In this document: one piece after another, positions 31,485 through 55,262 of the stretch
Numbering within the stretch: position 1 is the stretch's first letter
How the letters are laid out: the number at the start of each line of letters is the position of its first letter
DNA from: Chloroflexota bacterium
GTDB lineage: Bacteria; Chloroflexota; Dehalococcoidia; Bin125
Direction: 5' to 3'
Length of the DNA stretch: 64,000 nucleotides
Assembly: GCA_009838915.1 (NCBI GenBank)
Contig: VXQT01000013.1
Location: 135,746 to 199,745, forward strand
Program-made: the position numbers and the translations under genes
Notes under the pieces: model-generated
What the model was told of the DNA's origin: nothing
The model's input: the letters and a program-made list of their open reading frames with translations, nothing else
The model's database searches: none

Positions 31485-34367
31485 ATGACCAGCGCCGATG
31501 ACCAAACCGACGTCACCGATGAGGCCACTGCCGCGCTGCCCAACGAGGCCAGCGTCGAGGAGCAAGCGTCACCTGCCGCCCGCGCAGTTCGCGAGCCGCT
31601 GATTGGACGCCACTTCACCCAGCCTGGCGAGGATGTCTACGGGCAGATCGAGTGGACCTACCGCACGGCGGCGATCACCTCAGACTCGGGCGAGACGATT
31701 TTCGAGCAGTCGGACATCGAAACGCCGGCGTTCTGGTCACAGACGGCGACCAACATCGTCGCCTCGAAATACTTCTGGGGACAGGTCGGCACCGACGAGC
31801 GAGAATCGTCGATGAAGACCCTGGTCGATCGGGTCGTGGAGACGATCACGCGTTGGGGGAGGGCTGGTGGATACTTCAGTGACGGCGCAGCGGCCTCTGC
31901 GTTCTCGCAGGAGCTGCGTTATCTGCTGATCAATCAGTACGCCGCCTTCAACTCTCCGGTCTGGTTCAATGTCGGCGTCGAAGAGACGCCGCAGTGCTCG
32001 GCCTGCTTTATCAACTCCGTCGAGGACACGATGGAGTCGATCATGGACCTGGCCAAGCGTGAGGCGCTGCTGTTCAAGTGGGGCAGCGGCACCGGATCGA
32101 ACCTGTCCACGCTGCGCTCCAGCAAGGAATCGCTGACCGGTGGCGGCAAGGCGTCGGGGCCGGTCTCGTTCATGCGCGGCTACGACGCGTTCGCCAACGT
32201 GATCAAGTCGGGCGGCAAGACGCGCCGCGCGGCGAAAATGATCATCCTCGACGCCGATCACCCCGACGTCATGGAGTTCATCAACTGCAAGGCCGACGAA
32301 GAGCGCAAGGCCTGGGCGCTGATTGACTCCGGCTATGACGGTTCTCTGAACGGCGATGCGTACTCTTCAGTTTCGTTCCAGAACGCGAACCACTCGGTAC
32401 GCGTCTCGGACGAGTTCATGCAGGCGGTCGAAGCGGACGGCATGTGGGCGACCCGCGAGGTCGTCGGCGGCGAGGTGGTCGAGCAGATTCCGGCTCGCGA
32501 AATCCTGCGAGCGATCTCGGCGGCCACGCATCAGTGCGGCGACCCAGGGATGCAGTTCGACAGCGTGATCAACGACTGGCACACCTGCTCGAACACTGAC
32601 CGCATCTACGCGTCCAACCCATGCTCGGAGTACATGTTCCTGGACGACACGGCCTGCAATCTGGCCTCGCTCAACCTGCTCAAGTTCTACGACCTTGAGA
32701 CGCACGAGTTCGATGTCGAGTCGTATCGGCACGCCTGCCGGGTGATTATCACGGCGCAGGAGATCCTGGTCTCGAACGCGTCATACCCGTCGCCGCTGAT
32801 TGGCGAGAACTCGGAGAAGTACCGTCCGCTGGGCCTGGGCTACACCAACCTTGGGGCGCTGTTGATGGCTCGAGGACTGCCCTACGACTCGGTGGCGGGG
32901 CGCGCGCTGGCAGCCACCGTGACCGCGTTGATGACGGGCGAGGGTTACCTGCAGTCGGCTCGGATCGCCGAGCGGATTGGCGCATTCTCCGGCTACGCCG
33001 ACAACCGTGACCCGTTCCTGCGTGTGATGCGCAAGCATCAGGCGGCGGTGGGTCGGATCGACGGTCTGGACACGGTCCCTGGTGCAGTCCGCGAGGCGGC
33101 CGAGAATGCCTGGCGTCAGGCGGTCGCGCTGGGCGAGCAGCACGGTTACCGCAACGCGCAGGCCACCGTGCTCGCACCAACGGGCACGATCGCCTTCATG
33201 ATGGACTGTGACACGACCGGTGTGGAGCCCGACATTTCCCTGGTCAAGTACAAGAACCTCTCGGGCGGCGGTTACTTCAAGATCGTCAATCGCACCGTGC
33301 CGGCCGCCCTGCGCCGGCTGGGCTACGCCGAGAACGCGATTGAGAGCATCGGCGCCCACATCGACGAGACGGGGACGATCGAGGGCGCGGCCGACATCGA
33401 CGCCGAGCATCTGGCCATCTTCGATTGCGCGTTCAAGGCGCAAGCGGGACAGCGCAGCATTGCGCCTCTGGGCCACATCCGCATGCTGGGTGCAGTGCAG
33501 CCGTTCCTCTCGGGTGCGGTCTCCAAGACGGTCAACGTGCCCGAGCACACCGCGGTCGAGGAGATCATGCAGACCTACGTCGACGCCTGGAAGCTGGGCG
33601 TCAAGGCGGTCGCCGTCTACCGCGACAACTCGAAGCGGATTCAGCCGCTGGAGACAGGCGAGCGCAGCGGATCGGCGGTCGCAAAAGACGCACCGGTCTA
33701 CGAGCCGGGTCCGTCGATGCCGACCGACGAGCCAGTCGTGTTGGAGAACGCAGCGTCGCCACCGGCATACCGTCGGCATCGTCTGCCGGACGAGCGCAAG
33801 GCGCTGACCCACAAGTTCACCATCGGTGAGCATGAGGGATACATGACGATCGGCGAGTTTGAGGACGGCCGGCCCGGCGAGGTGTTCGTGCACATCTCCA
33901 AGGAAGGCTCGACCGTCTCCGGACTGATGGACGCGGTCGGCACGCTGACCTCGGTTGCGTTGCAGTCAGGCGTACCGCTGTCGACACTGGTCAAGAAGTT
34001 CGCTCACATGCGCTTCGAGCCGATGGGCTGGACGCGAAACCGCGACATTCCGCACGCCGACTCGATCCTCGACTACGTCTTCCGCTGGATGGGCACGAAG
34101 TACCTGGAAGGCGAGAACACGGACGCGATCGCAACGCAAGCACAGATGGCGATGGCGCCGGAAGAGGTCAAGCTGGCCGACGAAGAGGCGGGACCTGCGC
34201 CGGTGACGCCTCCGGTCGCGTCCTTGCCGTTGATCGACGATGCGTCAACCGCCGGCTTCCAGAACCAGCTCGACGCCCCACCCTGCGCGGAGTGCGGCTC
34301 GATCATGGTGCGCTCCGGGTCTTGCTTCCGTTGCATGAACTGCGGAGCAACCTCGGGCTGCTCCTAG
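31485..34367 (+). CDS. nrdJ: Adenosylcobalamin-dependent ribonucleoside-diphosphate reductase, class II
   Basis: 960 aa. Class II RNR core motifs. The Cys-rich C-terminal tail CAECG...CFRCMNC is typical of NrdJ. Confidence 0.9.
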   Translation: MTSADDQTDVTDEATAALPNEASVEEQASPAARAVREPLIGRHFTQPGEDVYGQIEWTYRTAAITSDSGETIFEQSDIETPAFWSQTATNIVASKYFWGQVGTDERESSMKTLVDRVVETITRWGRAGGYFSDGAAASAFSQELRYLLINQYAAFNSPVWFNVGVEETPQCSACFINSVEDTMESIMDLAKREALLFKWGSGTGSNLSTLRSSKESLTGGGKASGPVSFMRGYDAFANVIKSGGKTRRAAKMIILDADHPDVMEFINCKADEERKAWALIDSGYDGSLNGDAYSSVSFQNANHSVRVSDEFMQAVEADGMWATREVVGGEVVEQIPAREILRAISAATHQCGDPGMQFDSVINDWHTCSNTDRIYASNPCSEYMFLDDTACNLASLNLLKFYDLETHEFDVESYRHACRVIITAQEILVSNASYPSPLIGENSEKYRPLGLGYTNLGALLMARGLPYDSVAGRALAATVTALMTGEGYLQSARIAERIGAFSGYADNRDPFLRVMRKHQAAVGRIDGLDTVPGAVREAAENAWRQAVALGEQHGYRNAQATVLAPTGTIAFMMDCDTTGVEPDISLVKYKNLSGGGYFKIVNRTVPAALRRLGYAENAIESIGAHIDETGTIEGAADIDAEHLAIFDCAFKAQAGQRSIAPLGHIRMLGAVQPFLSGAVSKTVNVPEHTAVEEIMQTYVDAWKLGVKAVAVYRDNSKRIQPLETGERSGSAVAKDAPVYEPGPSMPTDEPVVLENAASPPAYRRHRLPDERKALTHKFTIGEHEGYMTIGEFEDGRPGEVFVHISKEGSTVSGLMDAVGTLTSVALQSGVPLSTLVKKFAHMRFEPMGWTRNRDIPHADSILDYVFRWMGTKYLEGENTDAIATQAQMAMAPEEVKLADEEAGPAPVTPPVASLPLIDDASTAGFQNQLDAPPCAECGSIMVRSGSCFRCMNCGATSGCS

Positions 34368-34376
34368 CGGCTCCTC

Positions 34377-34401
34377 TCTCCCCCCGCTGCGCGGGGGGAG
34401 A
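34377..34401. terminator. GC-rich palindromic hairpin TCTCCCCCC-GCTGCGC-GGGGGGAGA immediately after the nrdJ stop
   Basis: 9-bp perfect stem and a 7-nt loop, 10 nt after the TAG at 34365-34367. Lies between convergent genes. Identical to the element at 39199. Confidence 0.6.
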
Positions 34402-34434
34402 TGCCGAAGGCAGAGGGGGGCGTTCCGAGACTTG

Positions 34435-37222: not shown

Positions 37223-37549
37223 GTGAGACACATCACCTTTGCCGGAACCGTGGTGCGTGACGAGCGCCAGCTCGACGGCAGCCGGCATCTGGAGGTCGTG
37301 GGTGAGATCGGTGACAGCGAAGTGGCGCTCTACGTCGTAGTCGATCATGACGGTGAGTTGGCCGAGGCCGACATGACGCTCGAGTTGGACGGGGAACCAG
37401 AATCGGTCGCCTTCGAAGGAGACTCGGGCCTGGTCGACTGGGATGACATGAGGTTTACGTTGACCTCCGAGCACTTTGCCCTGGATGCCCGCCCTCGCCA
37501 GGACGGGGACCTGGACATGCGCCTGGTCGTGCGCGGAGCGAATCCGTGA
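37223..37549 (+). CDS. Hypothetical small acidic protein
   Basis: Coding-like acidic ORF ending in an ATGA overlap with cofD. Start uncertain; GTG chosen. No recognisable family. Confidence 0.35.
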   Translation: MRHITFAGTVVRDERQLDGSRHLEVVGEIGDSEVALYVVVDHDGELAEADMTLELDGEPESVAFEGDSGLVDWDDMRFTLTSEHFALDARPRQDGDLDMRLVVRGANP

Positions 37550-38487
37550 CGCGCGCGGCAGTGCTCGCCGGGGGCGTCGGCGCGGCTCGATTTCTTGACG
37601 GTCTTGTCCGCGTCCTGCCGCCCGAAGACGTGACTGCGATCGTCAACGTAGGTGACGACATGGAGTGGGCCGGGCTGCACATCTCGCCCGACCTCGACAC
37701 GGTCTCGTACACCCTGGCCGGCCTGGTTAACCCGGAGACCGGCTGGGGCCTCATCGGCGAGTCGCGACGCACGCTGGACCGGCTCTCGCAACTGGGCGGA
37801 CCCGACTGGTTCATGATCGGCGACCTCGATCTGGCCACTCATCTCTACCGCACCCATCGTCTCTCGCAGGGCGACCCGCTCTCGGCGATCACCGGCGATC
37901 TCACCGCCCGCCTCGGGCTGCAGTGCGCGATCACACCCGTCACCGACGATCGGTTGCGCACGGTGGTGGGCACGGACAGCGGAGAGTTGGCCTTCCAGGA
38001 TTACTTCGTACGCCGCCGCGCCGCCGATCGCGTGCACTCGCTCAGATTCGACGGCGCCGACTCGGCCCGCCCAGCGCCGACGGTCGTCAAGACCCTGGAG
38101 CAGGCCGATGTCATCGTCATCGCGCCGTCCAATCCATTCCTCAGCATCGACCCGTTACTCAGCGTGCCGGGCTTGCGCGACTTGGTCGTCTCATACCGCT
38201 CTCGTGTCGTTGCAGTTAGCCCGATCGTTGGTGGGGCGGCGGTTAAGGGACCGGCGGCGGAGATCCTTCAGTCGCTGGGGCACGATGTCTCCGCGCTTGG
38301 CGTCGCGCGACTCTACGCGGACTTAGCCGGTGTATTCGTCCTCGACGAAGCTGACAAGCTCCTCGCCTCGAGGATTGAGGGCGAAACACAAATGCGCGTG
38401 GTCGTCATGCCAACGCTGATGACCGATGTCGGGGCGAAGATGTCGCTGGCCGAGGGAACCCTGAAGGCGGCGCTCAATGCCGACTGA
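37546..38487 (+). CDS. cofD: 2-phospho-L-lactate transferase (F420 biosynthesis)
   Basis: AVLAGGVGAARFL N-terminal motif and a CofD/YvcK fold. Confidence 0.85.
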   Translation: MTRAAVLAGGVGAARFLDGLVRVLPPEDVTAIVNVGDDMEWAGLHISPDLDTVSYTLAGLVNPETGWGLIGESRRTLDRLSQLGGPDWFMIGDLDLATHLYRTHRLSQGDPLSAITGDLTARLGLQCAITPVTDDRLRTVVGTDSGELAFQDYFVRRRAADRVHSLRFDGADSARPAPTVVKTLEQADVIVIAPSNPFLSIDPLLSVPGLRDLVVSYRSRVVAVSPIVGGAAVKGPAAEILQSLGHDVSALGVARLYADLAGVFVLDEADKLLASRIEGETQMRVVVMPTLMTDVGAKMSLAEGTLKAALNAD

Positions 38488-39169
38488 ACCGAGCGGCATC
38501 GTGGCCGTTGTTCCCGTGCGGGGACTGCCTGCGGGCAAACGCCGCCTGGCGGCTCTGCTCGATCTGGAGGAACGCAACTCACTGGTTCGCGCCATGCTGG
38601 ACGATGTGGTGGCTGCTCTGGTCGCTGCCGAGCGCGTCGACGAGGTCGTGATCGCATCGCGTGACGCCGCAGCACGCGACGAAGCGGCTCGTCTGAATGT
38701 CGGATTCCTCGATCAGACCGACCTGCGTCTCGGCTACAACCGGGCTGTGCAGTTCGCACAGGAGACGTTGGCCGACTCCGGTGCGATCCTGATCGTCCCG
38801 GCCGACGTGCCGCTAATCACCCCCGACTCGGTCGACATGATGGTCGCGACTGCGCCCGATGGTCCTGCAGTGGTCGTCGCGCCGGCGCACGATGGCGGCA
38901 CAAACGGACTGTTCCTGCGCCCTCCGGATGTCATTGCACCGCAGTTTGGACCGTCCTCGGCGCGCGCGCATCAACAGTCAGCGGCCGCCGCCGGCGAGAT
39001 GGGCGTGCCATTCCGCGAGTCGCGGATCGACGTCTGGGCGTTTGACCTGGACACACCGTCGGACTTGCGCTGGTTGAGGGAGGCGCTTCCGCAGTTGCCG
39101 GATGCGATCGCGCCCAACTCCAGGCGTTGGCTCTCGGCGCATGCGGCGCACATGGAAGCATTGAGCTAG
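38477..39169 (+). CDS. cofC: 2-phospho-L-lactate guanylyltransferase (F420 biosynthesis)
   Basis: IVAVVPVRGLPAGKRRL nucleotidyltransferase N-terminus. Overlaps cofD by 11 bp. Confidence 0.75.
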   Translation: MPTEPSGIVAVVPVRGLPAGKRRLAALLDLEERNSLVRAMLDDVVAALVAAERVDEVVIASRDAAARDEAARLNVGFLDQTDLRLGYNRAVQFAQETLADSGAILIVPADVPLITPDSVDMMVATAPDGPAVVVAPAHDGGTNGLFLRPPDVIAPQFGPSSARAHQQSAAAAGEMGVPFRESRIDVWAFDLDTPSDLRWLREALPQLPDAIAPNSRRWLSAHAAHMEALS

Positions 39170-41858: not shown

Positions 41859-42487
41859 GTGCCTAGTTTCGCTGCTTCCAATACGGTGTGCGCCGACGAC
41901 TGCTTTACCTTGGCCACTCGCGTCGGTCCGAAGATGTCTACCAACCGGCGTGTCAGATACTTGCGCAATCCGTTTACAACCACGAGTGCCAGGCTGCCGC
42001 CGTCCAACATTGCGTCGTAGGCATCGAGCAGCAGTTGATCGAGCGCGTCATTGCCGGCCTGGGCGGGCAGGTTGGCGACGACAAGGTCGTAGGCGTGCAG
42101 CGGCTGCCGCAGTTGACGGATGCCGTCACTGAGCGTCACTGTTGCGTTCGCCAGTCGATTGCGCGCGATGTTCTGGGCGGCGGACTCGACTGCGCGCATG
42201 TCAGTATCGACCATATCGACTTGCGCGTCGGGCCAGCGAGCCGCGAGTGTGAGTCCGATTGCGCCGTATCCGCAGCCCAGGTCCAGGACTCGCGAGGGAG
42301 CGGGCAGCCGCTCCAACTCGCGGAGCAGCAGCGCGCTGCCTTCGTCTAGCGCACGGGCCGAGAAGAGGCCGTGACGGCTCCGGAGTTTCAGCACGCGGGG
42401 TCCTGCGTCTATGCGCAGCTCGGGCTGCTTGACAAGATGGCGTCGTAGTTCGACAACTCGGTCGGAGTCGACGGTGGAATCGCTCAC
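41855..42487 (-). CDS. Class I SAM-dependent methyltransferase (RsmC/small-domain type)
   Basis: VLDLGCGYGAIG SAM motif I and NLP motif IV-like (VVANLP). Confidence 0.75.
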   Translation of the reverse strand: MSDSTVDSDRVVELRRHLVKQPELRIDAGPRVLKLRSRHGLFSARALDEGSALLLRELERLPAPSRVLDLGCGYGAIGLTLAARWPDAQVDMVDTDMRAVESAAQNIARNRLANATVTLSDGIRQLRQPLHAYDLVVANLPAQAGNDALDQLLLDAYDAMLDGGSLALVVVNGLRKYLTRRLVDIFGPTRVAKVKQSSAHTVLEAAKLGT

Positions 42488-43575
42488 AGCGGATCAATCT
42501 TCTCGGAGACCGGAACAAAATCACCCATGTGCTCCGGGTCCATACGTCCCACGATTCCGGGATAGATGCCCGTGCGCTTACCGGCCGTCGCGCCGGCGAC
42601 CGCGATCAAAATGTGTGAGGGATGCGCGACCTTGGACATCGGTCGGTCGAGTTCGTCGGGCCCAAGACCGGAGTGGGCCAGGGCTGTGTCGGTGACGCCT
42701 CCGCCGACCTCAGCCGAGACGAGGCGTTCTCGGATCGGCAGAGCCGTCAGTTCCATAAGCGCTTCGCGGATGTCGGCCTTGCTCCAGCCGTCATGGCGGA
42801 AGACATGGGCATGTTCGGGGCTAACTACCAGCATCGATGGGCCGATTTGACCGTTGGGGCTAAAGATGCGCTGGAAGCCCATTGCCAGGGAACCGACCAG
42901 CGCGCGGGCGCTGCGGCTGTACTCGTCGATGCAGAGGCGAGGCCCGCCAATCACGGGTAGGAGCGTGACGACGCTGTCGTCGGGCGCGTAGCCGAACTCG
43001 ACATGTAGCGGCGGCCAGGGCGAGGCGTCCTCGTGCTCGGCGAAGGTGAGCGTGAATTTGTGGGCTCCACCAAGAATGGTCTGATCGATTTCGCCCTCTC
43101 GAGCCCCGCCGATGTTGCGCAACACAAGGCGCAACGCCCGGCCGATTGTCATGTTCGCTCGGTTGCCCTGGCCCAGCGCGTTGAGGCCCCAGTTCATTCC
43201 GATTTGTTCCCGGATTGGTCCGTTGACGATCAGCATCGGCGAGATGCCGTCCGTGCTGGCGACAACCCCGTGCAAGGGGAAACGGCCGGCTGATGCGGCT
43301 CGCACCGCGGCAATGATCGCGGGCAGGTACTCGGGCTTGGCCCCGGCTGCGACTGCGTTGACGGCAATCTTCTCGACCGTCGCATCGGCATAGTTGGGTG
43401 GGATTCTGCCGATGATCTCCGCTGGAGAGCACCGTGTTGCGCTCAGCATCCGCTCGACTCGCTCGCGAGTCGGCGGGACCAACGGGAGGCCGTCGGTGAT
43501 TCGCTGTTCGAGCATGAACTCGTAGACATCGTCGTGATCGGCGATGTCGACGGTTCGGGACAGGAGCTCGGTCAT
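42484..43575 (-). CDS. Uncharacterised conserved protein, paralog 1 of a tandem family (possibly the GGGtGRT family)
   Basis: Conserved blocks shared by three proteins in the window: DHDDVYEF, DGLPxVPPTRERV, NALGQGNRAN..GRALRL, FAEHEDASPW, GGP..CID. Has a GGGVTDT motif. Confidence 0.6.
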   Translation of the reverse strand: MTELLSRTVDIADHDDVYEFMLEQRITDGLPLVPPTRERVERMLSATRCSPAEIIGRIPPNYADATVEKIAVNAVAAGAKPEYLPAIIAAVRAASAGRFPLHGVVASTDGISPMLIVNGPIREQIGMNWGLNALGQGNRANMTIGRALRLVLRNIGGAREGEIDQTILGGAHKFTLTFAEHEDASPWPPLHVEFGYAPDDSVVTLLPVIGGPRLCIDEYSRSARALVGSLAMGFQRIFSPNGQIGPSMLVVSPEHAHVFRHDGWSKADIREALMELTALPIRERLVSAEVGGGVTDTALAHSGLGPDELDRPMSKVAHPSHILIAVAGATAGKRTGIYPGIVGRMDPEHMGDFVPVSEKIDPL

Positions 43576-44681
43576 GAACGGATCAGGGCGGAAGGCGGCT
43601 TGAACACTGGAGCGGTCTGCGTTGGATCGCCATCACCGAAGATGCCCTGGTAGATACTGGTCCACTTGCCGGCGTGGCTCCCGGCGACAGTGATGGCGAT
43701 GAAGGAGGGATCGGCGACCTTGGACATCGGTGCATCAAGGTCCGCCTCGGAGAGACCGTACTTCTCGGTCACGTACTCGTTGATGCCGCCGCCCATCGTC
43801 GGCGTGGCAAGACGCTCCCGCAGCGGGAGCGCGGTGAACTCCATGATCGCTTCGCGGATGTTGTCCTTCGACCAGCCATCCGCGCGATAGACATCGGCGT
43901 GTTCAGGGCTGATCACGAACATCGTCGGCGTAACCTGGCCGCGCGGCTTGACGACCTGCTGGAACGCCATGGCTATCGACCCGGTTAGTGCGCGAGCGTC
44001 GCGGCTGGTCTGGTCGATGCAGACACGCGGACCGCCGGTCGTGGGAAGCAAGGAAACCACGCTGTCAGCGGGATCGTAGCCGTGCTCGACGTGGAATGGT
44101 TCCCAGGGCGAGGTGTCTTCGTCTTCGGCGTAGCTGAGGGTCCACTTGTGTCCGCCGCCCTGGATGGCCTGCTCGATCTCGCCAGGCACCGCGCCGCCAA
44201 TGTTGCGCAGCATCAATCGCAGCGCGCGTCCGAGGGTCGAGTTGGCGCGGTTGCCCTGGCCCAGCGCGTTGAGCCCCCAATTCATGCCGATCGCTTTGCG
44301 CACTGGCCCGTTGACCAGCATCATCGGCGCGAGTCCCGCTGTAGTGGCGATCGAGCCGTGCAGTGGAAAGCGTCCGTCGGCCGCCGCTTCGACCGAGGCC
44401 AGAACTACGGGGAAGTACTCGGGCTTACAACCTGCCATGACCGCGTTGATGGCTGCCTTCTCGACTGTCATCGGCGCCATGTTGGGCGGGAGCGTCGCAA
44501 CCACCGCGCTGCGGTTGCTCCACTGCTCGGGGGCGCGCTCCAGCATCCGGTCGACGCGCTCGCGCGTCGGCGGGACGACCGGGAGGCCGTCGGTGATGCC
44601 CTGGTCGAAGATGAACTCGTGGACATCATCGTGGTCGGCGATCTCGATGACTCTTGAGTAGAAGTCGGATTCGCCGGACAC
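43572..44681 (-). CDS. Uncharacterised conserved protein, paralog 2
   Basis: The same conserved blocks as paralog 1. 4-bp overlap with paralog 1. Confidence 0.6.
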   Translation of the reverse strand: MSGESDFYSRVIEIADHDDVHEFIFDQGITDGLPVVPPTRERVDRMLERAPEQWSNRSAVVATLPPNMAPMTVEKAAINAVMAGCKPEYFPVVLASVEAAADGRFPLHGSIATTAGLAPMMLVNGPVRKAIGMNWGLNALGQGNRANSTLGRALRLMLRNIGGAVPGEIEQAIQGGGHKWTLSYAEDEDTSPWEPFHVEHGYDPADSVVSLLPTTGGPRVCIDQTSRDARALTGSIAMAFQQVVKPRGQVTPTMFVISPEHADVYRADGWSKDNIREAIMEFTALPLRERLATPTMGGGINEYVTEKYGLSEADLDAPMSKVADPSFIAITVAGSHAGKWTSIYQGIFGDGDPTQTAPVFKPPSALIRS

Positions 44682-44721: not shown

Positions 44722-44772
44722 GCCTTCGCTTCTCTCTCCCCCCGAGGAGCGGGGAGAGAGAGAAGCGAAGGC
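44722..44772. terminator. Long GC-rich hairpin (~20-bp stem) between the selenoprotein gene and paralog 2
   Basis: GCCTTCGCTTCTCTCTCCCC ... GGGGAGAGAGAGAAGCGAAGGC with a 9-nt loop CCGAGGAGC. No U-tract. Confidence 0.5.
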
Positions 44773-44799: not shown

Positions 44800-45330
44800 C
44801 TACTCGACGGGCGCCATCAAGGTGTCAAGAATCTCGTCGACGAAGCGTTCGGCGTGTTCGTGCATCTCGGCGTCGGTGCGGTCCTGCATCGGATGCGGAA
44901 TGAAGACGCGACGCACTTCTTCGAGTCCAAGTCGCTCGGCCTGGTGGCTGGCGGCCTTGATGAACTCGGAGGTGGCGACGAAAACGCTGGGCTTGCCCTG
45001 CAGTTCGAAAAAGACGGTGTCGTGCACACTGCACGTCGTGCAGGATCCTCAATCGGCGAGCGCTTCGATGACGAAGTCGCACTCCTCCAGAATCTCATCC
45101 TTGATCGGTTGCGGGGCCGGCTTGGCGACAGTCGGCTTCATGAAGCGGCGCGTCTCGACTCCTGGCGCGCGCTCGTGCAGCAATTCCTCAAGCCGGTCGA
45201 GGAAGACGTCGCCGCGCGGCTTGGAAATGTCGAGCAGCGCAATCGTCCCATGCAGCGCCTCGGGGCGCGGCGTGAGCGATCGCTTGATCGGCACTCGTTC
45301 GTCCGTAGGGTCGAGGATCTGGGTAACCAT
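44800..45330 (-). CDS. UGSC family selenoprotein with selenocysteine at an in-frame TGA (minus-strand codon 45051..45049)
   Basis: ORFs 45049..45330 and 44800..45027 are in the same frame, separated by one TGA and 7 codons. Read-through gives ...EALAD-U-GSCTTCS-VHDTVFF..., which is the U-G-S-C motif. A hairpin lies 11 nt downstream of the UGA. Thioredoxin-like context. Confidence 0.75.
45019..45051 (-). other. Candidate bacterial SECIS element: UGA followed by an 11-nt spacer and a hairpin GACGUGCA-GUG-UGCACGAC
   Basis: 7-bp stem with one A.A mismatch and a GUG apical loop. It starts 11 nt 3' of the UGA, matching the positional rule for SelB-dependent recoding. Confidence 0.55.
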
Positions 45331-45400: not shown

Positions 45401-46978
45401 TCATACGCCGATCTTCCCGCTGGTCGGCAACGAATAGGCGCCGCCGGCCCAGCCGCCGAGGATGGTTGAGAACTTCGCCGCCGGCGAACCGGCGACGACG
45501 AGGATGATGTTGGACTTGTCGCGAAACTTGGACACCGGCATGTCGAGTGCGGCTTCCCCGCCGAAGCGCTCGACGATGTCGGGCGGCAAACCACAGCCGG
45601 CGTCAGCGGAACGCAGGCGGTCCTTGAGCGGAATCGCCGTCTCTTCCATGATGCACTCGCGCACGTCGTCCTTGGACCAGCCCGAGCGTCCGAAGATGCC
45701 GGCATGGTCGGGCGAGAGAACGACGAGGGTATCGACCATCGGCGATTTGGGGTCCTGCATGCAACTCATCGAGAGCGCCAATGTGCCGGCCAGTCCGCGG
45801 CCGTCGCGCGAGCGCTCGTCGGCGACCGTGGCCGGTCCACCGGACATGGCCATCAGCGTCGCGACATCGTCGGTCGGCTCAAAGCCGCGCTCAACGGCGA
45901 GTGACTCCCAGGGGCTGGCGTCTTCGTGTTCGGCGAAGTTCATGGTCAGACGGTGCGGCCCGCCCTGGGTCGCGCGGTCGGTGCCGCCGGGCACGCTGCC
46001 GCCGACGTTGCGGGCGCAAAGCCTCAGCGCGCGGCCGATGGACGCATTGGCGCGGTTGCCGCTGCCCAGCGCGTTGTGCAGGTAGTTCATCCCGATCCGG
46101 TCGCGGATCGGACCGTTGAAGACACCAACCGGCGTCGCGCCCATGGTCGTGGCCAACACGCCGTGGATGTTGAAGCTTTCGGTGCAAGCGATTTCGACCA
46201 GGGTGATGATCGAGGGCAGATACTCGGGCTTCGCGCCGGCCATGACGGCGTTGATCGCGATCTTCTCCACCGTGATCGGCGCGAGGTTGGGCGGCATGAC
46301 CGCGACTTCATCCTGCGGGTCGCGCGGCGTGCCCTGGAGCATCTTCCAGACGCGCTCGCGGGTCGGCGGCACAACCGGGAAACCGTCGGTGTAGCCCTGC
46401 TCATACATGAACTCGTGGATGTCGTCGCTTGCGGCGAGGTCAACGAGTCGTGAGAGCAGGTCGCCGCTCTTGAGCGCCTGCAGCCGCTCGTAAACGCCCG
46501 GTTCGTAGTTGCGGGCCCCGCAGCCGGGCCGTTGCTCGGGCAACGCCTCCCAATCGATGGCAGTGTCCCCGCCGGACCGGCCGGCGAGCGTCATCGATTC
46601 GCCGGCAATCTCGCGCCACTCGTGCTTGTCGAAGCCGAAGGTCTGCAGTGTGCAGTTTTGCTCTTCGTCGTAGAGGAAGAGCGTGGGCACGGTGTCGATG
46701 TCGGTCTCGTACGAGAGGTCGAGCGCGTCGTCGTCGAGCAGCGGCATGGTCAGGTCGTGGCGATCCTTGAGCACGGCGATATCGTCGCGCTTCTGCACTG
46801 CAACCCAGACATCCAGGCCGTCCTCGGTCGCGCGGTGGACGGCTTCAAGCAGCGGGAGCGTCAGGTTGCAGGTGTCGCAGTCCTCTTTGACCAGTGCTAG
46901 CAATACTGGCCCGTCGGGCGGGAAGTGCATCTCTTCGCCATCGGCGTTGGCGAGGGCAAAACGAGTTGGCGGGTGCAT
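45401..46978 (-). CDS. Fusion protein: N-terminal thioredoxin-like CxxC domain plus paralog 3 of the uncharacterised family
   Basis: N-terminal ...LLALVKEDCDTCNLTLPLLE is a Trx-fold CxxC. From ~160 aa onward the same blocks appear as in paralogs 1 and 2 (GFPVVPPTRERV, NALGSGNRAN..GRALRL, FAEHEDASPW). Confidence 0.65.
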   Translation of the reverse strand: MHPPTRFALANADGEEMHFPPDGPVLLALVKEDCDTCNLTLPLLEAVHRATEDGLDVWVAVQKRDDIAVLKDRHDLTMPLLDDDALDLSYETDIDTVPTLFLYDEEQNCTLQTFGFDKHEWREIAGESMTLAGRSGGDTAIDWEALPEQRPGCGARNYEPGVYERLQALKSGDLLSRLVDLAASDDIHEFMYEQGYTDGFPVVPPTRERVWKMLQGTPRDPQDEVAVMPPNLAPITVEKIAINAVMAGAKPEYLPSIITLVEIACTESFNIHGVLATTMGATPVGVFNGPIRDRIGMNYLHNALGSGNRANASIGRALRLCARNVGGSVPGGTDRATQGGPHRLTMNFAEHEDASPWESLAVERGFEPTDDVATLMAMSGGPATVADERSRDGRGLAGTLALSMSCMQDPKSPMVDTLVVLSPDHAGIFGRSGWSKDDVRECIMEETAIPLKDRLRSADAGCGLPPDIVERFGGEAALDMPVSKFRDKSNIILVVAGSPAAKFSTILGGWAGGAYSLPTSGKIGV

Positions 46979-47444: not shown

Positions 47445-48545
47445 CTAGAACAGCAGGCGCCCCAGGCGCTTGCGGTACTCGACGACCACGGGCTGGTCGT
47501 CGCCCAACATGCCGAAGATGCCCAACAACGTCCTGCGAGCGGCTTCGTCCTGGGCGGTCTTGTCTAACTTGACCGACTCCAACAGTTCGTCCAGCGCCTG
47601 CATCCACTGGCCCTCAACTGCCAGCAGACAGCCGTGCCGGTAGCGAGCGAGCGCGTCGTCCGGGCTCGTCCCGGCCGCGCGACGCACCTCATCGGGGTCA
47701 AGTCCGTCCAGCACGGCCGTGAGCTCCATCGCCGTCAGCACGCTCTTGCTCATCGGATGGTTGGGCCAGCGCTTGGCGAGCTCCACGGCTCGCTCGTTCT
47801 CGCCAATGCGTGAGAGCACGGCGGCGAGCCCGACGCCGGCCGGTTCGTGATCCGGATCCTCTTCGAGCGCGGATTCGAAGTGCAGGCGCGCGATCGGGAT
47901 TTGGTTCTCCTGCAGCATCCGATATCCCTCAGCGGCCTTGATGTCGGCCTCGGACGGGATCAATGAATCGAAGAATGCGCGCACCTGTTCCTCAGGCAAC
48001 GCCCCGACAAACCGGTTGACGAGCTGTCCCCCAACGAAGGCAAACACCGCCGGGATGCCTTCCACCTGCAGCGCCTGAGCGACCTGTGGATTCTCGTCCG
48101 TGTTGACCTTGACGAGCTGGACCTGCCCGTCGCGCTCGTAGGCCAGCTTCTCGAGAACTGGTCCGAGCACTCGGCAGGGGCCGCACCACGGAGCCCAACA
48201 ATCGACGATCACCGGAATCTCATGCGATCGCTGGATGACATCCTGAGCGAAGCTGGCGTCGGTCGAGTCGATTACCGCCGCGACGTGTCCGTGGAGACTG
48301 ACCGGTTCGTTGTCTTCTGCCTCCGCCTGGAGAGGCTCTGCAGGCTGCGCGGGCGAAGGCGTGCGGTTCAGCGGAACCGGTTCCGGCGGCGGTGTAGACG
48401 GTTGCTGCTGCACCCGCCGCATCGGTTGGCCGGAGGCCGAGTAGATGACCGGACCGGACGGTTGTTGCTGCTGCTGCGGAGGCGGCGCGCCGCGCTGTAC
48501 TGGGTCACCGGGGAACGGAATCGGGTCGGGCGGCCTCTGCGTCAT
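47445..48545 (-). CDS. Thioredoxin-domain protein with C-terminal TPR-like domain (YbbN/CnoX-like)
   Basis: WAPWCGPC active site. Gln/Pro-rich N-terminus. Internal ATG with a GGAG RBS chosen as start. Confidence 0.8.
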   Translation of the reverse strand: MTQRPPDPIPFPGDPVQRGAPPPQQQQQPSGPVIYSASGQPMRRVQQQPSTPPPEPVPLNRTPSPAQPAEPLQAEAEDNEPVSLHGHVAAVIDSTDASFAQDVIQRSHEIPVIVDCWAPWCGPCRVLGPVLEKLAYERDGQVQLVKVNTDENPQVAQALQVEGIPAVFAFVGGQLVNRFVGALPEEQVRAFFDSLIPSEADIKAAEGYRMLQENQIPIARLHFESALEEDPDHEPAGVGLAAVLSRIGENERAVELAKRWPNHPMSKSVLTAMELTAVLDGLDPDEVRRAAGTSPDDALARYRHGCLLAVEGQWMQALDELLESVKLDKTAQDEAARRTLLGIFGMLGDDQPVVVEYRKRLGRLLF

Positions 48546-48580
48546 TCGAGTCTCCGGGCTAGTCAGGGTGACCGGTTCGG

Positions 48581-48781
48581 TTACCAGTTGGTGTAGCGCT
48601 TGCGTTTGGGGAAGTTGGCAGAGCGGTTCTTGGTCGAGTTGTTCTCGAAGATACCGGCAATGACACGCTCGGACTTGGCCTCGCAGGTCGGACAATCCTG
48701 CGGCTCCGAGGCCTGTGACATGGGACGGATCTTCTCAAAGTTCTCGCTGCACTTCTCGCAGCGATAGGTGTAGACGGGCAC
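48581..48781 (-). CDS. FmdB family zinc-ribbon protein
   Basis: (M)PVYTYRCEKC...CPTC. GTG start with AGGAG 9 nt upstream. Confidence 0.65.
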   Translation of the reverse strand: MPVYTYRCEKCSENFEKIRPMSQASEPQDCPTCEAKSERVIAGIFENNSTKNRSANFPKRKRYTNW

Positions 48782-49704: not shown

Positions 49705-51144
49705 TCAGCGCCGCCGGGCCACGTAGTGGGGGCTGCGGCCGAAGAACAGCTGCGCCGCTTCCATGATCGACTCGTTTAGCGTCGGGTGAGCGTGAATCGA
49801 CTCGGCCAGGTCCGAAGCTCGCGCACCCATTTCGACGGCCAGCACACCCTCTCCGATCAGCTCGCCGGCGCCTGGACCGACGATCTGCATTCCCAACACT
49901 CGCTCCGATCCCTGCTCAATGACCAGTCGAGTGAGCCCGTCGTTGCGGCCGGAGGCAGAAGCGCGGCCAAGCGCCGCCCAAGGGAAGCTGACCGTGGTTG
50001 CCTCGACGTCAATCGCGGAGGCGTCGGCCTGGCTTAGCCCACACCAGGCAATCTCGGGGTCGGTGAAGATCACTGCAGGAACGGCAAGTGGGCGAAACAT
50101 TGCCGGCTCACCGAGGATGGCCTCGATCGCGACCGACGCTTCCGCAGTGGCCTTGTGCGCCAGCATGGGCTCACCGGCGACGTCTCCGATAGCAAAGATC
50201 GATGGCTCTGCGGTGCGGCGCTGCATGTCGGTGACAATGAAGCCGTGATCGTCAACGTGGGCCTTCGTGCGATGCAGTCCCAGACCGGCGCTGTTGGGGC
50301 GCCGCCCGGTGGCGATCAAGACGCGGTCAAATGTCTCGGTCCGCTCGACGCCGGCGTCGTCGGCCAGCACTGCCTCGATGCCCTGATCGACTTCCGTCAG
50401 CGAGACCACGGTGGTATTGACCAGGGTTTCGGCGAAGCGCGATCGTAGGCTGCGCTTGAGCACGCGTACCAAGTCGTGTTCCACGCCGCTGAGGATGTCG
50501 GGCAGCGACTCGACCACGGTCACGGTCGATCCCAGTTCGGCGTACACCGTTCCAAGCTCGAGTCCGATGTAGCCGCCGCCGACAACCAGCAGCGAGTCTG
50601 GCACATCCGGCAGTTCGAGCGCCTGGGCGGCGTCCATGACAAGCTCGGAGTCGAGCTGCAGTGGGCGGGGGATTGCCGCGCTGGAGCCGGTGGCGATGAT
50701 CAGGGCGTCGAAATCGAACGGCAGCACCTCGCCGTTCGACTCGATGTTGAGCTGGTTGGCGTCGCGAATGCGGCCGAAGCCTTGCTGGTAGTGGACGTGG
50801 TGTTGTCGTCGCAGTAGTCCCAGACCATTGGTCATCTTGAGGACCACACCGTCCTTCCAGTCGCGAAGCTGATCCAGGTCGATTTGCGGCTCCCCGAAGC
50901 TGATGCCCCACTCGGACGCATGGCGGGCCTCGCGAATCAGTTTGGCGACATGCAACAGCGCCTTGGAGGGAATACAGCCCTCGTAGAGGCAGACGCCACC
51001 TGGTTGAGGCCGCGTATCGATCAGAGTGACATCGAGGCCTCGCTCGGCCGCGTGGAACGCGGCCGGGTAGCCTCCCGGACCTGCACCGAGCACGGCGAGG
51101 CGTATCGTGCCCGTGCCGGTGCCGTTTGCGTCGCTGGTCACCAC
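49705..51144 (-). CDS. lpd: Dihydrolipoyl dehydrogenase (E3)
   Basis: FAD motif GAGPGG, redox-active disulfide GGVCLYEGCIPSK, and NAD and dimerisation domains. Confidence 0.9.
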   Translation of the reverse strand: MVTSDANGTGTGTIRLAVLGAGPGGYPAAFHAAERGLDVTLIDTRPQPGGVCLYEGCIPSKALLHVAKLIREARHASEWGISFGEPQIDLDQLRDWKDGVVLKMTNGLGLLRRQHHVHYQQGFGRIRDANQLNIESNGEVLPFDFDALIIATGSSAAIPRPLQLDSELVMDAAQALELPDVPDSLLVVGGGYIGLELGTVYAELGSTVTVVESLPDILSGVEHDLVRVLKRSLRSRFAETLVNTTVVSLTEVDQGIEAVLADDAGVERTETFDRVLIATGRRPNSAGLGLHRTKAHVDDHGFIVTDMQRRTAEPSIFAIGDVAGEPMLAHKATAEASVAIEAILGEPAMFRPLAVPAVIFTDPEIAWCGLSQADASAIDVEATTVSFPWAALGRASASGRNDGLTRLVIEQGSERVLGMQIVGPGAGELIGEGVLAVEMGARASDLAESIHAHPTLNESIMEAAQLFFGRSPHYVARRR

Positions 51145-51146
51145 TG

Positions 51147-52556
51147 CTATCCCCCGAGCGCCAGGACGAGCGGTTGCCGGATCACGTCGGCGATCCAGGT
51201 CATGAATCGAGCACCATCTGCGCCATCCATCACCCGGTGATCGAAGGTGAATGAGAGCGGCAGAATGCTGCGCGGCTCCCAGTCGTGCCGCGCTTCGGAC
51301 CAGACCGGACGCCGGTCGGCGCGACCGATGCCGAGAATGGCGGTGTTGGGGTGGTGGATGATTGGCGTGAAGTGTCCGGTTCCCAGCCCGCCGAGGTTGG
51401 TCACTGTGAAGCTGCTGCCGCGGAAGTCCTGCAATCCAAGATCACCGGAGCGGGCCCGCTCTGAGATGTCGGTGAGTTCCACGGAGATCTCGATGATGTT
51501 CTTTGAGTCGACATCTCGGATCACGGGGACGACCAGTCCCCGGGGAGTGTCTACTGCGACGCCGATGTTGACGTAACTCTTGAGTATGAGTTCGTCGTTC
51601 TCCGCATCGATCGAGCTGTTGACGTTGGGATGCTCCTTGAGTGCGGCAGCGGTGATCTTGAGCAGGATTGCAGTGATTGTCAGGCGGCCGCCGGCCTCTT
51701 CGGCATGCGCTCGGAAATCGCGGCGCACCTGTTCGAGTTCCGTGACGTCCGCCGAGTGGAACAGCGTGACGTGTGGCACTTCGTGCCAGGATGTCGCCAT
51801 GTTGCGCTTGATCGTGCGGCGCAGTCGACTCATGGGCACACGTTCGATCGCCCCGAATTCTGCAAAGTCTGGAAGGGGACCCGGGGATGGCGCACTGTGA
51901 CCGCCCGCCGGGGCCGGATCGGGCGCATCTCTGGCGTGACGTTTGATGTCTTCGAGGTCGATTCGACCGCCGGGTCCTGCTCCCTGAACGGCGCGAATGT
52001 CCACGCCGATCTCGCGGGCGAAGCGACGCACTGAGGGCGACGCGAAGACCGGTCGCGTCTCAAGATAGCCTTCGACCAGGGGAGCCGGAGCCGCGCTCGG
52101 CGCGGGCGGGGTCGGGGCGGGCGGGGGATTCTCGACCGACTCAGTTGCGTTGCCTGCCTGCTCGGAGCCGTTCTCCGATGCTGCGGCGCCGATCTCGACG
52201 GGTGGAGCAGGCGATGGAGGCGGTTCAGTGGTTTCAGCCTGTACCGGCGGATCGTTGGGTGCTGAGGTCTGTGCAACGGCTGCAGGCGGCGCATCGGTGC
52301 TATTCGGATCGACGCTGATCACGGGATCGCCGGGGCGAATCGTGTCTCCCGACTTGACGTGTACTCCCTTCACGACTCCAGCAAGCGAAGAGGGTAGATC
52401 GAGCGTGGCTTTTTCGGTTTCAATCTCCGCGATCGGCTGTTCTAGGGCGATCTGGTCACCGACGCTTACATACACCTGGAGCACGTCCGCCTCTTCGATG
52501 TCTTCACCAAGGTCGGGCAGCAGGATGACTCCAGGGTCGGAGGCGGCGGTCGTCAT
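51147..52556 (-). CDS. aceF: Dihydrolipoamide acyltransferase (E2) of a 2-oxoacid dehydrogenase complex
   Basis: Lipoyl domain ([12 protein letters not shown]), Pro/Ala linker, E3-binding domain, and a catalytic domain with the DHRVMDG motif. Confidence 0.85.
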
Positions 52557-52565
52557 ATCAGTCGT

Positions 52566-55262
52566 CTAACTCATCATCGGGTCGGCGCGATCCGGATCGA
52601 TGCCGAGTTCGCTGCGCGCCCTGAGCAAGGTGTCGCCGTCGATCTCGTCGCGTCGGTTCAGCGCGCTGAGCGCCGACCAGACGATGTGACTGGAATCAAC
52701 CTCGAAGAAGTCTCGCAGCGCTTCGCGGGTGTCTGAGCGACCAAAGCCGTCGGTGCCGAGCGCAGTGAGCGGACCGGGCAACCAGCGCGCCACGAGGTCG
52801 GGCAGCGACGCGGTGTAATCGCTGGCGGCCACGATCGGCGCGTCGCATTGGCCCAGCGACGTCTCCAGCCAGCACCGGCGAGGCTCCTCCAGGGGGTGGA
52901 ACCTGTTCCAGCGGTCGGTGTGAAGCGCCTCTCGCCGCAACTCGGTGTACGACGTCACCGACCAGACATCGGCGCGGATGTCGAAGTCGTCGCGGAGTAT
53001 CTGTTGTGCGGCTCGAACCTCGTTGAGTATTGGGCCGCTGCCCAGCAACCGAACCTGGGGAGCCTCGCTGGGAACCAGGGGATAGATGCCGCGCAGGATG
53101 CCTTCCCTGACGAGCTCAGACTCGGGCATCGGTGGCTGAACGTAGGGCTCATTCTCGACGGTGATGTAGTAGAAGATGCTCTCGTCTTCGTCGTGCATGC
53201 GTCGGATGCCATCCTGGACGATGACCGCAATCTCGTAGGCGTAGGCAGGGTCGTAGGCGATCAGGTTGGGAATCGTGGAGGCAAGCAAGTGGCTGTGGCC
53301 GTCCTGGTGCTGTAGCCCTTCGCCGTTGAGCGTGGTGCGACCTGCCGTTGCGCCAATCAGGAATCCACGCGCACGCGAGTCGCCCGCGGCGTAAGCCAGA
53401 TCGCCGAATCGCTGCAGCCCGAACATCGAATAGAAGATGAAGAACGGAATCGTCGGGACCTGGAGCGAGGAATAGGACATGCCGCCGGCGATGAACGACG
53501 ACATGGCGCCAGCCTCGGTGATGCCCTCCTCAAGTATCTGGCCGTCGCGCGACTCCTTGTAGTAGAGCAGACGATCCGAGTCGACCGGTTCGTAGAGCTG
53601 ACCGGCCGACGCGTAGATGCCGAACTCGCGAAACATGCCTTCCATCCCGAAGGTGCGCGACTCGTCGGGCACGATCGGCACGATGCGCTCGCCCAGCTCG
53701 CGGTCTCGCATGAGCCTGCTGAGCATCCTCACGATGCCCATCGTGGTCGACGCCTCGCGATCGCCGGTGCCTTCAAGGAACTCGGAGAAGGTCTCGTCGG
53801 GCGGCGCAGTCAGGTTGGACCGGGGCGACCGGCGCTCCGGCACGTGGCCGCCAAGCGCCTCCTTGCGTGTGGAGATGTAGGCCGCTTCTCGGCTGTCGCG
53901 CGAGGGCCGGTACAGGGGTGCGCCGACCACCTCGTCGTCCGAAAGCGGAATCGCGAACCGATCCCGGAACTGCATCAATTCCTGCTCGTTCAACTCCTTC
54001 TGTTGATGCGTGATGTTGCGTCCCTCACCGGCCTCGCCGAGTCCGTACCCCTTGATCGTGCGGGCCAGGATCACGGTCGGCGCGCCGCGATGATCAACGG
54101 CGGCACGATACGCGGCGTGCACCTTGAGTGGATCGTGTCCGCCCAACCGCATCCGCCAGAGTTCGTCGTCGGACATGTCGTCAACCATGCGCAGCAAGCG
54201 AGGATCGACACCCCAGAAGTGATTGCGGACGTAGCCTCCACCAGCCACGGTGTACTTCTGATACTCGCCGTCGACAACCTCACCCATGCGTTGGACAAGC
54301 AGACCCTGGTCGTCCCTGGCGAGCAACTGATCCCACTCCGAGCCCCAGATGACCTTAATCACGTTCCAGCCGACGCCGCGGAACACGGCCTCGAGCTCCT
54401 GGATGATCTGGCCGTTGCCGCGGACCGGTCCGTCGAGGCGTTGCAGGTTGCAGTTGACCACAAACACCAGGTTGTCAAGCTCCTCTCGAGACGCCAGCGC
54501 GATCGAGCCGAGAGTCTCGGGTTCGTCGGTCTCACCGTCGCCGAGGAAGCACCAGACCTTGCGATCTGTTGGTTCGAGCAAGTCGCGGTTCTCGAGATAG
54601 CGGATGAATCGCGCCTGGTAGATGGCCTGGATCGGGCCGAGGCCCATGGAGACAGTCGGAAACTGCCAGTAGTCGTCCATCAACCAGGGATGAGGGTATG
54701 AGGGCAGACCGCCAGAGAGTTCCTGGCGGAACTTGTGGAGTTGGTCGGGTGCGAGACGACCTTCGACATAACCTCGCGCATAGATGCCCGGTGCGGAGTG
54801 TCCCTGGAAGTAGACGAGGTCGCCACCACAGGGATGATCCTGGCCGCGGAAGAAATGGTTGAACCCGACCTCATACAGCGTGGCAGCGGAAGCATAGGTC
54901 GAGATGTGCCCGCCGATGCCGTGATTGTTCTGGTTGGCCTCGACGACCATCGCCATCGCATTCCATCGGATGATGGACTTGATCCGACGTTCCAGCGCAA
55001 GGTCTCCCGGGTAGGGCGGCTGTCTCTCGATCGGAATCGTGTTGACGTAGGGAGTCTGCGATGTGACGGGCAAGCGAATGCCTGAGCGCTGCGCCTCGAT
55101 CTGCAACGTCTGCAAGAGGCGCGAAACCCGCTCCGGACCTCGCCGTCTGGCGACATCGCGAAGCGAGTCGATCCAGTCGTTCGTCTCCAGCCAATCTTCG
55201 GACCCCGAGGGCTCGATTTCACGGCCAAGCGCCATTCGCCATGGAGACTCGGAGGTAGTCAT
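52566..55262 (-). CDS. aceE: Pyruvate dehydrogenase E1 component, homodimeric type
   Basis: 898 aa. ThDP motif GDGETDEPE. Confidence 0.9.
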   Translation of the reverse strand: MTTSESPWRMALGREIEPSGSEDWLETNDWIDSLRDVARRRGPERVSRLLQTLQIEAQRSGIRLPVTSQTPYVNTIPIERQPPYPGDLALERRIKSIIRWNAMAMVVEANQNNHGIGGHISTYASAATLYEVGFNHFFRGQDHPCGGDLVYFQGHSAPGIYARGYVEGRLAPDQLHKFRQELSGGLPSYPHPWLMDDYWQFPTVSMGLGPIQAIYQARFIRYLENRDLLEPTDRKVWCFLGDGETDEPETLGSIALASREELDNLVFVVNCNLQRLDGPVRGNGQIIQELEAVFRGVGWNVIKVIWGSEWDQLLARDDQGLLVQRMGEVVDGEYQKYTVAGGGYVRNHFWGVDPRLLRMVDDMSDDELWRMRLGGHDPLKVHAAYRAAVDHRGAPTVILARTIKGYGLGEAGEGRNITHQQKELNEQELMQFRDRFAIPLSDDEVVGAPLYRPSRDSREAAYISTRKEALGGHVPERRSPRSNLTAPPDETFSEFLEGTGDREASTTMGIVRMLSRLMRDRELGERIVPIVPDESRTFGMEGMFREFGIYASAGQLYEPVDSDRLLYYKESRDGQILEEGITEAGAMSSFIAGGMSYSSLQVPTIPFFIFYSMFGLQRFGDLAYAAGDSRARGFLIGATAGRTTLNGEGLQHQDGHSHLLASTIPNLIAYDPAYAYEIAVIVQDGIRRMHDEDESIFYYITVENEPYVQPPMPESELVREGILRGIYPLVPSEAPQVRLLGSGPILNEVRAAQQILRDDFDIRADVWSVTSYTELRREALHTDRWNRFHPLEEPRRCWLETSLGQCDAPIVAASDYTASLPDLVARWLPGPLTALGTDGFGRSDTREALRDFFEVDSSHIVWSALSALNRRDEIDGDTLLRARSELGIDPDRADPMMS

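Follow-up and report, generated by a model that had tools for sequence, protein, structure and literature searches.

UGSC gene and its neighbourhood

The window analysed here, that is, the whole 64-kb stretch of DNA, carries on its minus strand a gene of the UGSC family with an in-frame UGA codon, and this codon is followed at a short distance by an RNA hairpin. The coordinates of the gene, of the hairpin and of the structures predicted around it are collected in Table 1. Nucleotides of the RNA are numbered from the U of the UGA (nt 1 = position 45051). Translation of the minus-strand frame showed no further stop between the TGA and the terminal TAG. For protein profile scans of the read-through product, Cys was put in place of the stop. 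The resulting 176-residue product scored 155.3 bits with the NCBIfam model NF041046 ("UGSC family (seleno)protein"), whose curated cut-off is 125, and residues 4-172 were matched by Pfam PF24696 in a single stretch spanning the UGA (E = 2.8e-44). The U-G-S-C motif is present in the translated protein, its U being encoded by TGA. Of the database homologues listed (120 of 220 matches), most are gene calls of 96-100 residues whose last residues are ...EALAD, and they are therefore truncated at the same UGA. Our analysis confirms a single selenoprotein gene where two short ORFs had been called (45330-45049 and 45027-44800), and the two ORFs should be joined in the annotation of the window and of related Dehalococcoidia genomes.

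Table 1. Positions of the UGSC gene, the UGA codon and the RNA structures in the 64-kb window
Feature	Position	Strand	Remarks
UGSC-family selenoprotein gene	44800..45330	minus	ATG at 45330, in-frame UGA at codon 94, TAG 44802-44800, 176 codons
Sec codon UGA (U of the UGSC motif)	45049..45051	minus	TGA conserved at the aligned codon
Spacer GGAUCCUGCAC, 11 nt, nt 4-14	45038..45048	minus	Synonymous sites vary freely among homologues
5' arm of putative SECIS upper stem, GACGUGCA, nt 15-22	45030..45037	minus	C17, U19, G20, C21 invariant (120 distinct sequences)
Apical loop G23-U24-G25 (GUG)	45027..45029	minus	G23 and U24 invariant, 120/120 distinct Sec-form sequences
3' arm of putative SECIS upper stem, UGCACGAC, nt 26-33	45019..45026	minus	G27 invariant; Y30 pairs with position 18 throughout
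Candidate clade-specific lower helix, nt 7-16 with nt 44-56	44996..45045	minus	Predicted from MFE structures
Rival hairpin H1, CUGCAC-GAC-GUGCAG, nt 9-23	45029..45043	minus	Shares its middle arm with the SECIS hairpin

The UGSC gene sits among three paralogues of an unannotated domain of ~350 aa, a homologue of which lies directly upstream in ~90% of the related loci, and a 23-bp REP-like hairpin is located 3' of the gene. A structural model of a Cys-form relative (pLDDT 90.9) has a flavodoxin-like alpha/beta fold, in which the Sec/Cys position begins the helix that follows a beta-strand. PDB sequence searches with the UGSC protein and its neighbour returned nothing significant, and a promoter and terminator scan around the UGSC gene was uninformative. 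ARAGORN detected no tRNA gene, and hence no tRNA-Sec, in the 64-kb window, and selA, selB and selD were absent from the ~34 ORFs scanned with Pfam and NCBIfam in this window, which is only part of the genome.

Conservation of the UGA codon

TGA was found at the aligned codon in all of the 80 genome loci recovered by genome scan (56-99% protein identity), which belong to Dehalococcoidia and other Chloroflexota, Pseudomonadales and other Gammaproteobacteria, Deltaproteobacteria and Binatus. Near-identical relatives, with 97-98% protein identity, include OY820591.1, OZ241982.1 and OZ242281.1. A pattern scan of metagenomes, in which TGA, TGC or TGT was allowed at the Sec codon and nt 22 onward was left unconstrained, gave TGA in 118/118 usable matches. 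In total, TGA stands at the Sec codon of all 201 homologous genes recovered, and the same 6-bp core hairpin can be formed in every one of them. One apparent Trp form (P0132) reads TGA in its DNA. Downstream of the UGA, residues are invariant while their codons vary, which indicates selection at the protein level.

These data bear on an alternative explanation, namely that the UGA is a true stop, a sequencing error or a pseudogene lesion and that the hairpin is irrelevant. We regard this as hardly credible: gene callers do end the ORF at the UGA, and no Sec machinery is seen within the window, but TGA occupies the same codon in 201/201 homologous genes, which come from many independent assemblies, protein-level conservation extends through the downstream frame, and a curated selenoprotein model matches across the UGA. 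Moreover, the family has been reported as a selenoprotein in the GOS data, with 255 Sec forms and 21 Cys forms (PMC2398784).

Structure and stability of the hairpin

The sequence-only reading had described a hairpin 11 nt after the UGA (45019-45051, minus strand), with a 7-bp stem, one A.A mismatch and a GUG apical loop. Sequence and coordinates proved to be exactly as described, and stem, mismatch and loop were all found. The pairs are G15-C33, C17-G31, G18-C30, U19-A29, G20-C28, C21-G27 and A22-U26, with a mismatch at A16.A32; the upper stem has six uninterrupted pairs, 17-22 with 26-31, and a further pair, G15-C33, on the far side of the A.A mismatch. Written as a 19-nt RNA, the predicted SECIS of the window is GACGUGCAGUGUGCACGAC. 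In the window and its closest relatives the MFE structures enclose this upper hairpin in the lower helix of Table 1; this helix is not shared by the family as a whole, and other clades have lower helices of their own.

The MFE fold of the 63 nt starting at the UGA has an energy of -16.4 kcal/mol and includes the hairpin as its apical element. In the 60-nt context the hairpin pairs have probabilities of ~0.89, because nt 7-16 pair with nt 44-56. Compared with dinucleotide shuffles, the z-score of the MFE is 0.16, i.e. the RNA is no more stable than shuffled sequence, and thermodynamic significance was therefore not used as evidence. The expectation that folding of the RNA after the UGA would return a stable stem-loop was thus borne out in part: the hairpin is predicted in the MFE structure, but its stability is insignificant against shuffles. 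The core hairpin alone reaches -7.4 kcal/mol, which narrowly misses the -7.5 cut-off of the bacterial SECIS model, whereas the full fold of 60-63 nt is at -16.4 kcal/mol.

Pattern searches were also carried out in the window. Under loose bacterial SECIS rules, a hairpin follows 11.6% of the 1761 TGA triplets. Only a strict geometry (6 bp or more in the stem; loop no longer than 4 nt and beginning with GU; 18-20 nt from the TGA) proved rare, with 2/1761 TGA sites, the second one being at 60740 (+), and two further matches were weaker, with 5 bp. The other strict fdhF-like sites, at 33860 (+), 60740 (+) and 30125 (-), have no open frame and were taken as chance occurrences. The same was assumed for a second exact copy of TGCAGTGTGCA at 46644-46654 (+), which is antisense to a 525-aa gene and has no UGA. 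By energy or pattern alone, the hairpin is not beyond chance, and its significance rests on comparative data.

Nucleotide-level constraint and covariation

Codon usage within the hairpin was found to be frozen in the Sec forms. In the set of 81 sequences, Thr+5 is encoded by ACG in 80/81, Cys+6 by TGC in 81/81, Ser+7 by AGT in 81/81 and Val+8 by GTG in 65/65 cases; the sequences without Val at +8 encode Leu by UUG or CUG, or Met by AUG, which makes this codon NUG throughout. Codon entropy is 0 at +6 to +8 and 0.10 bits at Thr+5. Outside the hairpin, equally invariant residues show values of 1.76 (Gly+1), 1.60 (Ser+2), 0.94 (Cys+3) and 1.51 bits (Thr+4), and further downstream of 1.63 (Pro+20) and 1.61 bits (Val+22). 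The combined set of 201 Sec forms comprises 120 distinct 36-mers, in which C17, U19, G20, C21, G23, U24, G27, G31 and A32 are invariant. G27 is the third position of a Val, Leu or Met codon, yet it does not vary. G23 and U24 remain unchanged even in a subgroup in which Ser (AGU) is replaced by Cys (UGU), where pair A22-U26 opens to give a 5-nt loop; the third loop position, N25, may be G, U, A or C among the 120 distinct sequences. A fixed G23/U24 on a constrained stem is the signature of a sequence-specific loop contact, and both nucleotides are presumed to contact SelB. The spacing between UGA and hairpin is likewise fixed, with no indels among 71 aligned homologues. The core ACGUGCAGUNUGCAYG, located at nt 16-31 (15 nt after the TGA codon), is frozen in members of at least four phyla and can be used as a simple, specific key in searches for more members.

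The six core pairs can be formed in 71/71 aligned sequences and in 100% of the 120 distinct Sec forms, and RNAalifold run without constraint returned exactly the core helix of nt 17-31. The sequence-only reading had pointed to UGSC homologues for comparison, and a structure is indeed present at the same site in the orthologues, with core pairs formable in every one. Pair 18-30, the sole core pair whose two partners are both free third codon positions, is GC in 92, GU in 25 and AU in 3 of the 120 distinct sequences and is never mismatched; A18 occurs only together with U30 (L040, L107 and L161), and where His at +9 changes to Cys or Arg the pairing is kept through a G-U wobble. The A16.A32 mismatch is replaced by a U-A pair in 40% of the members (Ser UCG at +5), giving an 8-bp stem. 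The other five core pairs show no variation or wobble only. Apparent covariation at pair 15-33 (A-U in 13 sequences) was left unused, as this pair is mismatched in 35/120 and confounded with AT-rich lineages. True covariation is thin, amounting to three sequences, and the case for a selected RNA element draws mainly on the synonymous freeze.

Comparison with Cys-containing homologues

Full-length Cys homologues and their DNA served as a control; they form a diverged clade with ~45-50% identity. Their motif is CGSCTSC followed by A/S/T, then I/L/T/V, then HD. Five of them (L082, L083, L084, L086 and L087) use GCU, GCA, UCA, GCG or GCC at +7 and AUC, AUU or ACC at +8, can form just 4-5 of the six pairs and have a loop other than GU. 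L085 keeps the stem, with a CGC loop. Taken together, the hairpin is lost in 5/7 Cys forms and the GU loop in 6/7. Two non-Sec sequences, L081 (TGT) and L089 (TGG), retain the complete hairpin and resemble Sec forms that have changed recently or contain a sequencing error. On replacement of Sec by Cys, the RNA features relax together with the residues they encode, as a SECIS predicts, and this relaxation could partly reflect protein divergence, the clade being diverged. Better supported than the ribosome-gated reading considered below is the view that the invariant T-(T/S)-C-S-V-H-D peptide of the Sec forms is dictated largely by the RNA and not by protein function, because the Cys forms vary at these residues.

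We also considered that the hairpin might be a by-product of the codons for the conserved C-T-T-C-S-V-H-D peptide, with the recoding signal located elsewhere or formed by another structure. Conservation around the element is dominated by coding sequence, and much of the UGC...GCA complementarity is forced by the conserved Cys (UGC) and His (CAC) codons. This reading could also appeal to an MFE that is insignificant against shuffles, to loose SECIS-like hairpins after 12% of TGA triplets and to L085, a Cys form that keeps the stem without need. It is improbable all the same, as it leaves unexplained the frozen third positions G18, C21, U24 and G27 (entropy ~0 versus 0.9-1.8 bits in the flanks), the restriction of Val, Leu and Met to NUG codons and the retention of G23/U24 through Ser-to-Cys changes. 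Residues +5, +7 and +8 and their codons vary once Cys replaces Sec, and the 60 nt downstream of the UGA contained no further conserved structure.

Sequence invariance alone does not identify a ligand, and the frozen 16-nt sequence could in principle bind a protein or an sRNA, act as a palindrome at the DNA level or cause translational pausing, its likeness to a SECIS being coincidental. Such a function is highly improbable given that the sequence co-occurs with TGA in 201/201 Sec forms and is lost in 5/7 Cys forms, that its distance from the UGA is fixed without indels and that the loop GU stands in the register of fdhF (PMC8659212). We conclude that the hairpin at 45037-45019 is very probably the SECIS of the UGSC-family selenoprotein gene. 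The original assignment to bacterial SECIS elements is supported by conservation of the UGA and the hairpin, by the synonymous freeze, by RNAalifold and by loss in most Cys forms.

Competing hairpins

Two other hairpins can be drawn in the same region and might be the functional element instead. H1 uses the middle arm that the SECIS hairpin also needs, so only one of the two can form at a time, and H3 pairs nt 6-14 with nt 25-33, leaving a loop of 10 nt. In stability H1 equals the SECIS core (-7.5 versus -7.4 kcal/mol), and it is almost equally conserved, its five core pairs forming in 70/71 sequences, but its loop begins just 11 nt after the UGA, outside the range of 16-37 nt, and reads N-A-C, so that G comes first only where N15 is G (72/120) and GG or GU never occurs. 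H1 also offers no explanation for the frozen U24, U26 and G27 and has no pair changed on both sides; its pair C14-G18 is broken in the three A18 variants (L040, L107 and L161), where the proposed SECIS hairpin compensates. In addition, its 5' arm would be covered by a ribosome decoding the UGA, so H1 would then be absent. H3, with an energy of -5.0 kcal/mol, is the MFE structure in several homologues, but its pairs form in just 81% of cells, and 9-30 and 14-25 fail in many sequences. Neither hairpin was chosen by RNAalifold, and a functional role of either in place of the SECIS hairpin is very improbable.

Proposed mode of action

A ribosome with the UGA in its A site covers the mRNA to about nt 13-14, as known from toeprinting geometry. 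In the UGSC mRNA, ~13-14 nt downstream would accordingly lie within the mRNA channel when the UGA enters the A site, and the SECIS stem-loop, which starts at nt 15, would then stand at the channel entrance. The Sec-specific elongation factor SelB would bind, through its C-terminal domain, the apical G23-U24 presented on a stem of 6-7 bp and, competing with release factor 2, would bring Sec-tRNA(Sec) to the UGA. Translation would then run through the remaining 82 codons. We infer that the organism carries selA, selB, selC and selD.

The region contains three arms, UGCAC (nt 10-14), GUGCA (nt 18-22) and UGCAC (nt 26-30), from which either of two equally stable, mutually exclusive hairpins can form, and these might constitute a SECIS gated by ribosome position. 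In free mRNA, the middle arm could sit in the upstream hairpin (nt 9-23); a ribosome unwinding nt 9-14 would hand it over to the SECIS hairpin (nt 15-33), and the SelB-binding loop would appear just as the UGA reaches the A site. We consider this gating unlikely.

Comparison with known selenoproteins and SECIS elements

The UGSC family ranks among the most abundant selenoprotein families of prokaryotes in aquatic metagenomes; in a 2026 review it appears under NF041046, with function unknown (PMC13188914). Compared with this family as defined by NF041046, PF24696 and the GOS study of Zhang and Gladyshev (PMC2398784), the window protein exceeds the cut-off score and carries the U-G-S-C motif, and, as in the GOS data, Sec forms are far more numerous than Cys forms. 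The window member is of the Dehalococcoidia type, with T-T-C instead of T-S-C after the motif; nothing substantive differs. For this family, a defined 19-nt SECIS is now given.

The bacterial SECIS model used by bSECISearch has a loop of 3-9 nt in which the first two positions hold G (mostly GG or GU), an upper stem of 4-16 bp, a distance of 16-37 nt from UGA to loop and an MFE of at most -7.5 kcal/mol (PMC13188914, Fig. 2). The GUG loop (3 nt), the stem of 6-7 bp and the UGA-to-loop distance of 19 nt of the window hairpin are all within these limits; the energy of its core is marginally above the limit, while the 60-nt fold lies below it but is no more stable than shuffled sequence. No part of the window matched Rfam at gathering thresholds (0 matches).

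The minimal SECIS of E. coli fdhF is a 17-nt upper stem-loop, GGUUGCAGGUCUGCACC (PMC3834832), which follows the UGA at a distance of 11 nt, covers nt 15-31 and has U17, G23 and U24 as its critical bases (PMC8659212). The corresponding nt 15-31 of the window (GACGUGCAGUGUGCACG) are identical to it at positions 15, 23, 24 and 26-30 (U26-G27-C28-A29-C30), and the 11-nt spacer is common to both. Both hairpins span nt 15-31 (to nt 33 in the window) and have G23 and U24 in the apical loop, which has 3 nt (GUG) in the window and 4 nt (GGUC) in E. coli. The bulged U17 is missing in the window, where position 17 is a paired, invariant C and the sole irregularity is A16.A32. The predicted lower helix is different and clade-specific, and the host belongs to the Chloroflexota and would thus have a different SelB. 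As the register is that of E. coli fdhF, it would be reasonable to try expressing the element in E. coli. Overall, the element is very probably an fdhF-like bacterial SECIS in an already catalogued selenoprotein family, and it leaves the knowledge of Sec recoding unchanged.

Gene neighbourhood of the UGSC selenoprotein

The features surrounding the UGSC selenoprotein gene were listed in the table below. The gene is flanked by three paralogues of a domain of about 350 aa, which share 49-61% identity with one another. The domain is unannotated, and searches of Pfam, NCBIfam and PDB sequences returned no match. Among the related loci with sufficient flank to score the upstream neighbour of UGSC, 129 of 144 carried a homologue of this domain directly upstream and on the same strand, and in some gene calls (P0070 and P0081) such a homologue was fused to UGSC. 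The ~350-aa domain protein appears to be a functional partner that is conserved alongside the selenoprotein. The 525-aa copy has an extra N-terminal region of about 170 aa that is thioredoxin-like and contains a CDTC motif; this region, together with the adjoining thioredoxin-domain and TPR protein, gives UGSC a thiol-redox neighbourhood. The nearest relatives were Dehalococcoidia MAGs.

Features around the UGSC gene
Feature	Position	Strand	Location
Near-perfect 23-bp inverted repeat	44722-44772		between UGSC stop and next gene
Second hairpin element	34370-34420	+	after ribonucleotide reductase gene
~350-aa domain paralogue, 525-aa copy	45401-46978	-	flanks UGSC gene
~350-aa domain paralogue	43572-44681	-	flanks UGSC gene
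~350-aa domain paralogue	42484-43575	-	flanks UGSC gene
Thioredoxin-domain and TPR protein	47445-48695	-	adjoins UGSC cluster
CofD, CofC (F420 biosynthesis); pyruvate or 2-oxoacid dehydrogenase E1-E2-E3 cluster	37546-39169 and 49705-55262	+ and -, respectively	among context genes

Residues at the selenocysteine position

Some database homologues that appear full-length (P0001, P0121, P0123, P0126 and P0135) were found to have W, R or G at the selenocysteine position, encoded by TGG, CGA and GGA respectively, each one substitution away from TGA. In P0121 the codon is TGG and the hairpin following it is intact, and for P0132, with W in the protein record, the contig DNA reads TGA. These residues seem to stem from the code that the gene caller chose, from sequencing errors or from very recent mutation, and not to be stable variants.

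Repeated hairpin elements

The inverted repeat immediately downstream of the UGSC stop folded at -67 kcal/mol over 106 nt (z = -5.3) and shares the tail GAAGGCAGAGGGGG with the element that follows the ribonucleotide reductase gene. Similar elements of the form CUCCCCCCGCG...CGGGGGGAG...GAAGGCAGAGGGGGG were present at the matching intergenic position in five homologous loci (L002, L003, L005, L007 and L008), and together these elements appear to form a REP-like family of small repeats in this lineage. Separately, TGCAGTGTGCA recurs exactly at 46644-46654 (+), in CTGCAGTGTGCAG, a 5-bp hairpin; this copy lies antisense to the 525-aa gene and has no UGA upstream in an open frame, and was therefore dismissed as a chance match.

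Predicted structure

The structure of P0002, a Cys-form relative of the UGSC protein, was predicted with AlphaFold2 (pLDDT 90.9, pTM 0.85) as a flavodoxin-like alpha/beta fold with five strands, which gave weak matches in the PDB (TM 0.4-0.5) to flavodoxin, lumazine synthase and CheY-like domains. The U/C-G-S-C motif is located in the model where a beta-strand meets the N-terminus of a helix, a predicted placement that resembles that in redox-active CxxC proteins.
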